Position numbers and translations under genes: made by a program. A stretch of DNA of 64,000 nt from Clostridia bacterium (GTDB taxonomy: Bacteria > Bacillota > Clostridia > Oscillospirales > CAG-272), in contig JAFVYL010000040.1 in the NCBI GenBank assembly GCA_017508665.1, forward strand, positions 8,309 to 72,308, given 5' to 3'. The notes below the pieces were generated by a model. The model saw only the letters and a program-made list of their open reading frames with translations, was not told where the DNA came from and ran no database searches. Shown piece after piece: positions 25,579 through 26,301 of the stretch. Within the stretch, counting starts at the first letter, position 1. Every line of letters begins with the position of its first letter.

Positions 25579-25772
25579 GATTAAATCTGCCTCTGGCAGA
25601 TGAAGTCCACATATAGTGGATTAAGTCGCTACGCGATTAAGTCCGACGCGGTCGGGATAAAGCAACCTGCCGCCAGGCAGATTCCATCGCGAAGCGATTT
25701 CATCCGACCTCGTCGGATTTATTCCATCGAAGATGGATTTAGTTGCGAAGCGTCACTCTGTGAGGCTTCGCA
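25579..25772. repeat. mini-hairpin array overlapping the cotJC 3' end
   Basis: At least 8 hairpins, for example ATCTGCC-tct-GGCAGAT, TCCAC-atata-GTGGA, TCGC-tac-GCGA, ATCGC-gaa-GCGAT and ATCCGAC-ctc-GTCGGAT. Linkers are 7 nt. It ends in TGCGAAGC...ctctgt...GCTTCGCA (25744-25772), which contains the cotJC stop codon. Confidence 0.85.
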
Positions 25773-26301
25773 AGGCTTCGCCAAAACGCTGGTAGTGGAC
25801 TATCTCGCGCTGGCGCAGGAATTTGATTACGTCGTTTACGTCGGGATCGTCTGAAAGGCGAAGAATGTTGTCGTAGGTCACTCTCGCTTTCTGCTCTGCG
25901 GCAAGGTCCTCGTTGAGATCCGAGAGGGGATCGCCCTTAGACGAGATAGCCATAGCAGAGAAGGGCTCGCCCGATGCGGCACAGGGGTAAACACCCGACC
26001 CGTGTCCAATATAATACTTATCTAGGCCTCCGGCCTTTATCTGCTCGGGGGTGAGATTGCGTGTGAGCTGATAGATAATACTGCCCACCATCTCCGCGTG
26101 ACCTAGCTCCTCGTTTCCTATATCGGTCAGTGTTCCTATAATCTTGCCCGACGGCATTGTGAAACGCTGATTCAGATATCTTGTAGCCGCGCCCAGCTCA
26201 CCGTCAGGGCCGCCGAGGGCATCTATAATAAGGCTCGCAAGTCGAGCATTGGGGTTCTTGATCCTTACAGGATACTGCAGCTTTTTCTCATATATCCACA
26301 T
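25753..26301 (-). CDS. cotJC: spore coat protein CotJC (manganese-catalase family)
   Basis: MWIYEKKLQYPV N-terminus, the LNQRFTMP...ELGHAEMV di-metal motif, and REIVHYQRFGEAL near the C-terminus. Confidence 0.9.
   Translation of the reverse strand: MWIYEKKLQYPVRIKNPNARLASLIIDALGGPDGELGAATRYLNQRFTMPSGKIIGTLTDIGNEELGHAEMVGSIIYQLTRNLTPEQIKAGGLDKYYIGHGSGVYPCAASGEPFSAMAISSKGDPLSDLNEDLAAEQKARVTYDNILRLSDDPDVNDVIKFLRQREIVHYQRFGEALRSLTE

Follow-up and report, generated by a model that had tools for sequence, protein, structure and literature searches.

Why should the last codons of a sporulation gene reappear, in frame and with their stop codon, behind two unrelated genes downstream of it? The question is raised by a 64,000-nt stretch of contig JAFVYL010000040.1 from an uncultured member of the Clostridia (the window; all positions without a locus number are those of this stretch). 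In the window rplJ and rplL on the plus strand (rplL 23256-23627) converge, by their Pfam assignments, on cotJA, cotJB and cotJC on the minus strand (26839 to 25753). The cotJC gene (25753-26301, minus strand), with CotJB and CotJA encoded upstream, codes for a protein of 182 residues with a Mn_catalase domain (Pfam, E 7.5e-53), and the gap of 2.1 kb between rplL and cotJC holds two minus-strand open reading frames (ORF1 and ORF2). A preliminary description of the window had proposed serial insertion of units by recombination at a site overlapping the end of cotJC, with part of the target copied at each event, a proposal that the sites and junctions of related genomes support. We put at roughly three in four the probability that the tail copies are scars of serial insertion, of the kind performed by large serine recombinases (LSRs), at an attB site in the 3' end of cotJC.

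Displaced copies of the cotJC end

The 13-mer GCTTCGCCAAAAC is found exactly at 25775-25787, in cotJC, and at 24375-24387, with two mismatches at 24944-24956, and nowhere else in the 64 kb. Its recurrence behind the two cassette ORFs was pointed out in the preliminary description, all of whose coordinates were confirmed; the 13-mer copies begin after gaps of 19 nt and 11 nt from the ORF stop codons. The 13-mer count by itself is not significant, as 20 of 100 shuffled sequences reached at least three matches at up to two mismatches; the full repeat is much longer, with a stretch of 33 nt shared by three copies (79-91% identity) and one of 74 nt shared by two (92%). When the minus strand is translated in the frame of cotJC, the copy behind ORF1, GTTTTGGCGAAGCTATGCGTTCCTTAACAGAGTAA, encodes (R)FGEAMRSLTE-stop and the copy behind ORF2 encodes IAEALRSLTE-stop, while cotJC's own end, RFGEALRSLTE-stop, uses different codons from the displaced copies. 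The whole of what had been described as a CTCTGT hairpin is a displaced copy of the gene end, namely the last 11 codons of cotJC and the stop; the earlier geometry of the 13-mer copies was right, and it was the extent of the copying that had been understated. Each displaced gene end has a downstream arm complementary to its last codons, and a degenerate fourth CTCTGT hairpin lies at 24220-24245.

The C-terminus of the window CotJC is short. In the window and in the related loci L005-L007, L010, L011 and L018 (L numbers designate loci or contigs of related genomes) the protein ends 8-10 residues past RFGEA; in most other relatives it is 15-30 residues longer and runs about 22-33 residues past this point (...LDxKNFYAFNPxFD...). 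The last approximately eight codons of cotJC, to the right of the recombination core, were probably supplied by a cassette. Since the part after the core comes from inserted DNA, the short C-terminus of the window clade may be a legacy of element insertion, in which case L006 and L007, described below, would be secondarily empty.

Empty and filled sites in related genomes

A protein-guided scan of one genome per species yielded 80 cotJC loci, which were searched for cassette landmarks, meaning a P junction (see below) or a terminator hairpin with a promoter. The system is confined to a narrow group, because only three of these species-level loci (L005, L011 and L018) have junctions; the landmark scan gave nothing in the remaining 77. 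Both empty sites and sites with one or more cassettes were found, as the preliminary description had predicted for relatives. In L006 and L007 (CotJC 92% and 88% identical) there are no cassette landmarks after cotJC, only other hairpins and T runs, and the same holds for those long-tailed relatives that were inspected (L009, L013, L015 and L016). Among the filled sites, L005 (CotJC 93% identical) has four cassettes and an empty unit or remnant, L018 (71%) has at least two cassettes, L011 has one with a cargo of 828 residues, and L160/L161 has at least six cassettes behind a recombinase-carrying element. Despite the 93% identity of their CotJC proteins, the window and L005 share no cassette. 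Long-tailed cotJC genes (L148, L140 and L164) carry insertions at the same codon, with long displaced tails; L148 has a single cassette there, with a displaced tail of about 110 nt behind it. A pyrK-like gene directly follows cotJC in the cassette-less L007, L009, L013 and L016, and it is at a pyrK-like gene that the array terminates in L005, L153, L155, L156 and L159.

In a metagenome scan for the terminator-hairpin and promoter pattern, 18 matches were obtained, nine of which are real, the rest being unrelated soil, marine and other sequences; contigs identified by this pattern, L148 among them, enlarge the set of arrays. A scan of viral contigs for the same pattern found nothing, and one for hairpin spacers of the form CATGAATTG-gap-CATGAATTG gave 50 matches, about the chance estimate. 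The array-bearing genomes are metagenome-assembled genomes of Clostridia or Eubacteriales from ruminant and other guts. Across the arrays the cargo consists of SF0329, DUF3885 and leucine-rich repeat (LRR) proteins and small lipoproteins, mostly of unassigned function; Pfam and NCBIfam gave only the SF0329 and DUF3885 matches and weak LRR matches, and to see immunity genes in this cargo would be a guess. One contig, L137, which has a P-arm junction and an array with AATTCATG spacers, also carries a tandem pair of TD-1 RNA motifs (RF03155; 777-894 and 932-1051; 66.6 and 65.1 bits against a gathering score of 64.5) just upstream of a cassette ORF.

Organization of the cassettes in the window

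The cassette parts described in this section lie on the minus strand and are given in the direction of cotJC transcription. The left end of cassette 2 contains a terminator hairpin (25548-25575; AGGACGGCGAGAGAAATCTTGCCGTCCT and then a T-rich run), found by a terminator scan, which would end transcription of the cotJ operon; a homologous T hairpin, GGGCGGTTTGAG..CAAATCGTCC, is present in all related arrays. It is followed by a predicted promoter (25518-25546; TTTACT-17-TATAAT with a TG extension, TGTGGTATAAT) that matches the consensus at 10 of 12 positions, and the same promoter box stands upstream of cassette ORFs in L005, L018, L146, L156 and L160. The cargo, ORF2 (24968-25489), encodes 173 residues of the SF0329 family (Pfam PF25753, E 1.7e-41; NCBIfam NF049912), whose members occupy other array positions in L142, L156 and L159. 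The junction after cassette 2 (24914-24972) consists of a partly degenerate P arm (TAATAATATTGACTGTATTGCC), the core copy at 24944-24956, the displaced tail IAEALRSLTE-stop (24922-24956) and its hairpin (24914-24941), and is followed by a mini-hairpin array of four hairpins with AATTCATG spacers (24835-24913).

Cassette 1 is built in the same way, with a terminator hairpin at 24800-24827 and a predicted TG-extended promoter at 24770-24798 (10 of 12 consensus matches), and over 80 nt the terminator/promoter blocks of the two cassettes are 78% identical. Its cargo, ORF1 (24407-24745), encodes 112 residues without a family assignment in Pfam or NCBIfam; the gene is in the same place in four assemblies of the window species, and like ORF2 it is preceded by an AAGGAG ribosome-binding site. 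In the junction after cassette 1 (24343-24403) the P arm AATACTTTATGTTAATTGTTTTGGC (24380-24403) adjoins the exact core copy (24375-24387), the displaced tail (R)FGEAMRSLTE-stop (24353-24387) and its hairpin (24343-24374), and a second mini-hairpin array of four hairpins with AATTCATG spacers extends over 24266-24342. A decayed last unit (24149-24262), fused to a second copy of the rplL terminator, retains the truncated start of a terminator hairpin (AAAACAGGGCGG, 24249-24262), the degenerate tail hairpin at 24220-24245 and a Gut-1-like array (24149-24220). Units of these arrays hold 1-2 genes; those in the window measure 0.55-0.8 kb and have, by scan and consensus matches on the minus strand, one predicted terminator and one predicted promoter each.

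Six contigs of the window species from five sample assemblies have an identical arrangement. An assembly artefact was considered and ruled out, as these contigs agree and related genomes are built alike. Exact look-ups of the window CotJC and ORF1 returned the same arrangement only; ORF2 has no record under this start codon.

The proposed recombination site

To describe the site, 30 cassette-end junctions (31 regular-expression matches, one of them false) and 11 cotJC junctions were aligned. The recombination core in cotJC is the 13-mer at 25775-25787 (minus strand), GTTTTG-G-CGAAGC, a degenerate form of the 13-bp palindrome GCTTCG-G-CGAAGC found in relatives; the near-palindrome G[CT]TT[CT]G-G-CGAAGC encodes (R)FGEA. 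On the cassette side the consensus of the 30 junctions is aATaCTTcAtgtTGAcTGTaTtG.C/GAAGCtATG, with further 5' sequence unconserved, and on the cotJC side that of the 11 genes is GT.CACT.CCAGCGcTTcGGC/GAaGC. The cassette arm, aATaCTTcAtgtTGAcTGTaTtG.C, is 24 nt long (P arm) and ends the mini-cassettes in the window. The attB-type left arm of the window (B arm, 25780-25800, minus strand) is GTCCACTACCAGCGTTTTGGC, with an ACTAC/ACTTC motif at half-site positions 11-15. Conservation of the P arm stops about 24 nt from the core, the B and P arms diverge 5' of the core, and the site as a whole agrees with the short (about 40-50 bp), imperfectly dyad-symmetric att sites of LSR elements. The conserved arm and a copy of the CotJC C-terminus follow the ORF at every recognised inter-cassette junction, and in-frame C-terminal copies were seen at approximately 25 P-arm junctions in more than 10 genomes. 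The window contains three core copies for two cassettes, a pattern repeated in at least 10 loci.

Counted from the palindrome centre, [AG]C[TC]T[CT] occupies half-site positions 16-20 in 28 of the 30 P arms, and among the B arms positions 11-15 read ACTTC in six, ACTAC or ACTAT in five others and ATTTC in one. In the LI integrase the motif bound by the zinc-ribbon domain was placed at 16-24 in attP and 11-19 in attB, a shift of 5 bp (Rutherford et al. 2013, PMC3783163). Judged by these positions, the left half-sites fit the published attP/attB geometry of serine integrases. L168 has an element with a 58%-identical LSR inserted at this core the other way round, so that the new cotJC tail, LQSR-stop, is encoded by the reversed P arm of that element. 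Crossover would therefore take place near the palindrome centre; an initial placement at the TT before GGCGAAGC was dropped after this opposite-orientation insertion was seen.

A large serine recombinase at the arm

The contig L146 starts with a protein of 504 residues with Resolvase, Recombinase and zinc-ribbon domains. Immediately behind its stop codon stand an arm of the cassette type and a copy of the cotJC tail; a hairpin array, a terminator and a promoter come next, and then two further cassettes. Its homologues number 4597 proteins at E <=1e-20; the best 120 are 499-643 residues long, nearly all of them about 505, and the N-terminal domain matches TP901-1 integrase (E 7.5e-20) and resolvases. 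An LSR of 504-507 residues with PF00239, PF07508 and PF13408 precedes the P arm in L146 (92% identity), L153/L154 (73%), L156/L157 (75-77%), L159 (73%), L160 (73-75%) and L164 (61%). The P arm directly follows the LSR stop in L146, L156/L157, L159 and L160, begins 9 nt after the gene in L153/L154 and lies within 165 nt of it in L164, and at each of these loci it is followed by a displaced cotJC tail, which in L164 is of the long kind, joined to the same arm. In L153/L154, L155, L156/L157 and L159 the LSR gene stands at the right end of the mobile DNA and is followed by the arm, the displaced tail and the pyrK-like gene. No relatives of the LSR were found in viral contigs, and there is therefore no sign that the elements are phages.

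A complete element, inserted at the same codon, is present in L160. The gene order there begins with DUF4416 and cotJA/B/C, the last ending in ...RFGEAIQSG-stop, and continues with a 6.8-kb element that opens with the new tail EAIQSG-stop and a terminator and closes with a small resolvase, a 60-residue ORF and the LSR; there is no internal junction between cotJC and the LSR. Beyond the LSR come the P arm, an old tail, EAMEILKNK-stop, with its hairpin, an array with AATTCATG spacers and older mini-cassettes, and in L161 six junctions follow the LSR. From this order it follows that, when the element arrived, the right side of its target site already came from a cassette, and such reuse of the site is what stacking requires.

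Directly upstream of the LSR, four loci carry a protein of 140-144 residues consisting of the resolvase catalytic domain only, together with the 60-residue ORF (L155 314-924, L156 9368-9978, L159 159-775 and L160 9374-9978; the pair also occurs in L157 and L161-L163). Both are candidates for directionality or accessory factors.

Tail hairpins and Gut-1-like arrays

The array region behind cotJC is the most hairpin-dense in the window. The stop codon of cotJC (25753-25755), as stated in the preliminary description, sits within a hairpin, in the loop of a structure at 25743-25773 (minus strand) with a 9-bp stem, TTGCGAAGC/GCTTCGCAA (25743-25751 / 25765-25773), and an inner 4-bp helix; the 45-nt segment with this hairpin has a predicted folding energy of -17.9 kcal/mol. 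Seven sequence-distinct tail types form stems of their own, of 10-15 bp, in which the last codons pair with a downstream complement and the stop codon falls in the loop or the 3' arm. An eighth type, that of the L005 cotJC, has a weaker stem, and L006, L007 and L010 have weak folds only. Because sequence-distinct tails form stems at the same place, the structure is selected; it might act in RNA, at the 3' end or in stability, or else in the DNA. The two G-T pairs of the terminator hairpin are retained solely on the sense strand, as would suit a terminator acting in RNA. As separate observations, in the present cotJC tail (25743-25787) the right half of the core is repeated in tandem (GGCGAAGCC TTGCGAAGCC), the 3' arm of the tail hairpin (GCTTCGCAA) being able to pair with either copy, and this tail type is the same as that of a displaced copy in L005 (7723-7760).

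Between the cotJC tail and the cassette 2 terminator there is a further array in two halves. The first, of three hairpins with (A/G)UGAAAU-like spacers, lies at 25676-25745 in the sense direction (minus strand) and matches the Gut-1 RNA model (RF01706, 33.8 bits, E 3e-4); the second (25579-25660, plus strand), with spacers GATGAAGT and GATTAAGT, gives a weak match of 18.5 bits. The array of the decayed unit at 24149-24220 scores higher (45.3 bits, E 3e-7), as do Gut-1-like matches in L005 and L146 (46.2, 42.1 and 41.6 bits). Save for the weak plus-strand match, these matches span the full 77-nt model with the same three-hairpin build, and all fall below the gathering score of 50; they appear only in the E-value mode of Rfam, a run at the gathering threshold giving only transfer-messenger RNA (tmRNA) and the leader of L10. 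Gut-1 itself was reported, with no function assigned, solely from human gut metagenomes (Weinberg et al. 2010, PMC2864571). The window arrays share with it the three short hairpins and GUGAAAU-type spacers, but differ in their setting, behind a gene end and ahead of a terminator within the left ends of cassettes, and in occurring in both orientations. The reuse of the stem words of 24150-24215 in 25579-25743, noted earlier, agrees with our repeat comparison, and what had been called an inverted copy is borne out by the spacers of 25579-25660, which are oriented opposite to those of 25676-25745 and 24149-24220.

Gut-1-like arrays grade into arrays with AATTCATG and ACTTCAC spacers; these do not differ in kind but are read on the opposite strand. 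Their common spacer word, ANTTCAY, recurs as the outer motif of the P arm, and occurs 15 times in the 752 non-coding bases here versus 70 times in the whole window. Relative to transcription, hairpin arrays are found in either orientation. In the L159 array and at the L156 mini-cassette junctions the tail copies fold only weakly and mini-hairpin arrays are absent. Given this absence and the two orientations, the arrays are therefore not needed for stacking, and the part that the preliminary description gave to hairpins in the geometry of recombination finds no support. Two readings suggest themselves, namely that the mini-hairpin arrays are hairpins of the 3' untranslated region (3'-UTR), or that they are clusters of a recombinase recognition word.

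Discussion

Starting from the observed anatomy of the arrays, their distribution among relatives and their association with LSR genes, we infer that an LSR catalyses the insertions, that the regenerated site is reused and that units are mobilised in trans. The attB of a family of elements with an LSR of about 505 residues would be the cotJC 3' end, centred on the 13-bp near-palindrome. The left end of an element (P') would bring a surrogate cotJC tail that restores the frame, usually with a hairpin over the stop, and after it, in some cases, mini-hairpin arrays, then an intrinsic terminator and a TG-extended promoter directed outward, and its right end would be the 24-nt P arm. Integration would join cotJC to the new tail and move the previous tail behind the P arm of the element. 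Repeated insertion at the regenerated site would stack the units with the newest next to cotJC, n units leaving n displaced tail copies, and the window would record at least two insertion events and a decayed third unit. Its units, which are single-gene, recombinase-less and have kept both ends, may be non-autonomous and depend on mobilisation in trans, or may have arisen from larger elements by deletion. Every gene would be kept expressed, as cotJC gains a tail and a terminator, the cargo gains a promoter and the cargo transcript ends at the old terminator. The terminator/promoter block and the arm with the core would in addition serve as homology for the reshuffling of cassettes, tails and hairpin arrays.

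Several points weigh against this reading of the tail copies as scars of serial insertion. There is no LSR in the 64-kb window (by tblastn, Pfam and reading of the larger ORFs), nor any other recombinase among its larger ORFs, and no LSR within 6 kb of cotJC in L005, L011 and L018. The identical arrangement in five sample assemblies gives no sign of current mobility here, and the window array is a fixed record of past insertions. The right half-sites, where a clean 5-bp motif shift was looked for, show none, and the crossover dinucleotide can be placed approximately within the core, near the palindrome centre. To our knowledge, canonical serine integrases do not recombine attP with attL, and it is from the anatomy of the arrays that reuse of the regenerated site is read. 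The LSR unit of L157 has no cotJC upstream within 10 kb, which indicates a rearranged or secondary location; the unit and a cassette-like two-gene unit (5500-11600) are preceded there by core genes (ribosomal protein S20, TMEM164-like). Finally, a cassette of 78 residues common to L018 and L161 is 99.2% identical over 370 nt, with core genes 77-78% identical, and the edge of this identity falls at the terminator hairpin and not at the core, with entirely different tails upstream. With such an edge and such tails, at least some transfers took place by homologous recombination in conserved blocks and not at an att site.

The conserved blocks do act as homology arms. Tails do not always travel with their cargo (L018 versus L161; L142 versus L159, where SF0329 cassettes that are 94% identical have different tails), and homologous cargo is found at different array positions among relatives. 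These positions, and the near-identity of the L018/L161 cassette between genomes far less alike in their core genes, show that cassettes move. A near-identical array with AATTCATG spacers follows different tail types, RSLTE in the window and EILKNK in L137 and L140, with a related one in L160, and tails within one array are often alike (34 of 36 nt in L018; also L159 and L142), which suggests gene conversion. Whether single cassettes were also moved by an LSR in trans is a matter of about even odds. One may go further and suppose decay alone, the window units being internally deleted full LSR elements that were never mobile singly and that spread by homologous recombination. The L018/L161 edge, the independent reassortment of tails, arrays and cargo, fusion or deletion junctions at L161 (around 9360) and in the window (24249-24262), and the lack of a nearby LSR and of polymorphism in the five sample assemblies are what such an account would lead one to expect. 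We nevertheless find it unlikely, as the 24-nt P arm is conserved over 30 junctions while cotJC is about 66-81% identical at the nucleotide level and the adjacent non-coding sequence is unconserved, the units are uniform (one promoter, one or two genes, one arm) rather than the product of random deletions, and arrays of at least six such units exist.

In the opposite direction, serial insertion may be extended into a serine-recombinase counterpart of the integron, in which single-gene cassettes would be captured serially in the last codons of cotJC. The cassette tail would mimic the host half-site, so that the cotJC junction stays attB-competent and the inter-cassette junctions are attP-like; one LSR in trans could then insert and excise cassettes without a directionality factor, and Gut-1 would be a cassette component, possibly an array of the outer recognition word of the recombinase, rather than a free-standing small RNA. 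This we advance tentatively, as a possible reading that we are on the whole inclined to doubt. It is distinct from the supposition of an integron proper, with a tyrosine recombinase, folded hairpins as attC-like sites, promoterless cassettes and an attI-like site in cotJC. Unrelated small ORFs between repeated structured elements, with stems that vary in sequence while base pairing is kept, do give the locus a superficial likeness to that system. Yet no tyrosine recombinase was present among the window ORFs examined, those of L156, L164 and L168 belonging to separate mobile elements; the conserved junction is a linear 24-nt arm with a 13-bp palindrome and not an R''-L''/L'-R' hairpin; the L159 array and the L156 junctions do without mini-hairpin arrays or strong tail folding; the window cassettes each have their own predicted promoter; and the arm adjoins a serine recombinase gene at six loci. 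An integron proper can accordingly be given next to no credence. Also very improbable as an account of the tail copies, if somewhat less remote, is that the tail hairpin and the Gut-1-like arrays are regulatory modules, 3'-UTR or small-RNA elements duplicated together with genes, so that the likeness to the cotJC end would be that of a common RNA element; of the hairpin arrays taken by themselves this may be true. The full length of the Gut-1 match, the strong conservation of the hairpins as structures and the sense-strand G-U pairs of the terminator hairpin would suit RNA elements, which have no need of the CotJC frame and stop that the copies keep, even in the tails of about 110 nt in L148 and L164; the copies, moreover, always stand behind an arm that also flanks LSR genes, and the arrays, found in either orientation, are missing at some loci.

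The closest known analogue of serial insertion at cotJC is the staphylococcal cassette chromosome (SCC) at rlmH. SCC and SCCmec elements enter the 3' end of rlmH (orfX), are moved by the Ccr large serine recombinases and restore the gene end, and in tandem composite islands recombinase-less members stand beside recombinase-carrying ones. SCC elements are flanked by direct repeats containing the integration site sequence (PMC8772726). The cotJC insertions share with them the position in the last codons of a conserved gene, the restored gene end, the site-containing repeats and the stacked units, and the LSR at cotJC is also of the large serine type, being likened to Ccr by class alone. They differ in that the target is cotJC in uncultured Clostridia and not rlmH in staphylococci; in a single LSR of about 505 residues with a small resolvase-domain ORF and a 60-residue ORF in place of ccrAB or ccrC; in miniature, standardised units made of surrogate tail, terminator, TG-extended promoter, cargo and arm; and in displaced repeats that span the whole remaining coding tail, from 35 to about 110 nt. 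The comparison would therefore illustrate a way of working and not membership.

Like integrons, the cotJC arrays present at a single site small genes that are unrelated and stacked in order, with the newest at the entry point, a repeated recombination element between cassettes, cargo mostly of unassigned function and cassettes in distant hosts. This is a likeness of outcome, and membership fails on every defining feature tested. The cotJC arrays have neither a tyrosine recombinase nor an attC-type folded site with R and L boxes, their hairpins are perfect and varied in sequence, each cassette has its own predicted promoter and terminator where integrons rely on a common Pc promoter, and the entry site is within a coding sequence that the cassette must repair. 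The skin element in sigK and SPbeta in spsM likewise combine a sporulation gene target with a serine recombinase, but those single large elements interrupt the gene and must excise, whereas at cotJC stacks of single-gene units leave the gene intact through an element-supplied tail. A 2013 paper named cotJC as a phage or transposon integration target in spore formers, and in C. difficile R20291 a prophage adjoins a CotJC homologue (PMC11222575). In full-text literature searches no account of serine-recombinase cassette arrays located at cotJC came to light.

If serial insertion by an LSR is true, stacks of exchangeable single-gene cassettes, so far a hallmark of integrons and their tyrosine recombinases, also arose around an LSR in gut Clostridia, and each cassette would be a self-contained expression unit that also repairs its target gene. 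The system would offer a natural case in which to test how half-site mimicry can relax serine-integrase directionality, of relevance to genome engineering, and the Gut-1 RNA motif, without a function since 2010, would for the first time be placed in a genomic context. The system would also explain the truncated, variable CotJC C-terminus in one clade as a tail supplied by mobile DNA, and its cargo would be a stock of accessory genes open to exchange in Clostridia of ruminant and other guts.

Other features of the locus

Compared with L005 (1380-11200), the window (24140-29900) has the block DUF4416 - cotJABC - cassette array inverted, and the window array therefore adjoins the rplL terminator and not the pyrK-like gene, whose place is now behind DUF4416, at 28939. 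L005 has, after its rplL terminator (1380-1440), hairpin arrays as well as hairpins that resemble tails (TCTTTACGGAGTAAAGA near 1566 and 1708), and inverted GTGAAGT arrays occur at 3876-4050. The inverted hairpin arrays flanking the block may mark the place of inversion.

The stop codon, 3' flank and terminator of rplL are present twice in the window (region 23562-24138), at 23622-23680 and 24080-24138, with 98% identity over 59 nt. In the approximately 400 nt between the two copies there are two exact pieces of the rplL 3' coding sequence (23725-23742 and 23887-23911), parted by a G+C-rich insert of 144 nt, and then a 24-nt inverted repeat (23915-23938 / 24055-24078). The stretch folds far more stably than shuffled sequences (z = -5.2) and has no significant Rfam match, the best being IS605-orfB-I (E 0.08). 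This duplication could be a second phenomenon in which a gene end is copied.

The only Rfam matches above threshold in the window are the L10 leader upstream of rplJ (22476-22649, 46.4 bits) and tmRNA (43810-44175, minus strand, 145 bits). No integrase adjoins the tmRNA gene in the window, its neighbouring ORF being a serine dehydratase. Directly upstream of cotJA (27105-28124, minus strand) lies a gene for a lipoprotein of 339 residues built of repeats of about 20 residues of the type YDYTYDEKGNLIKEV, with RHS-repeat matches, and in L156 the final cassette ahead of the pyrK-like gene (13660-14559) encodes a related lipoprotein with YD/RHS repeats.

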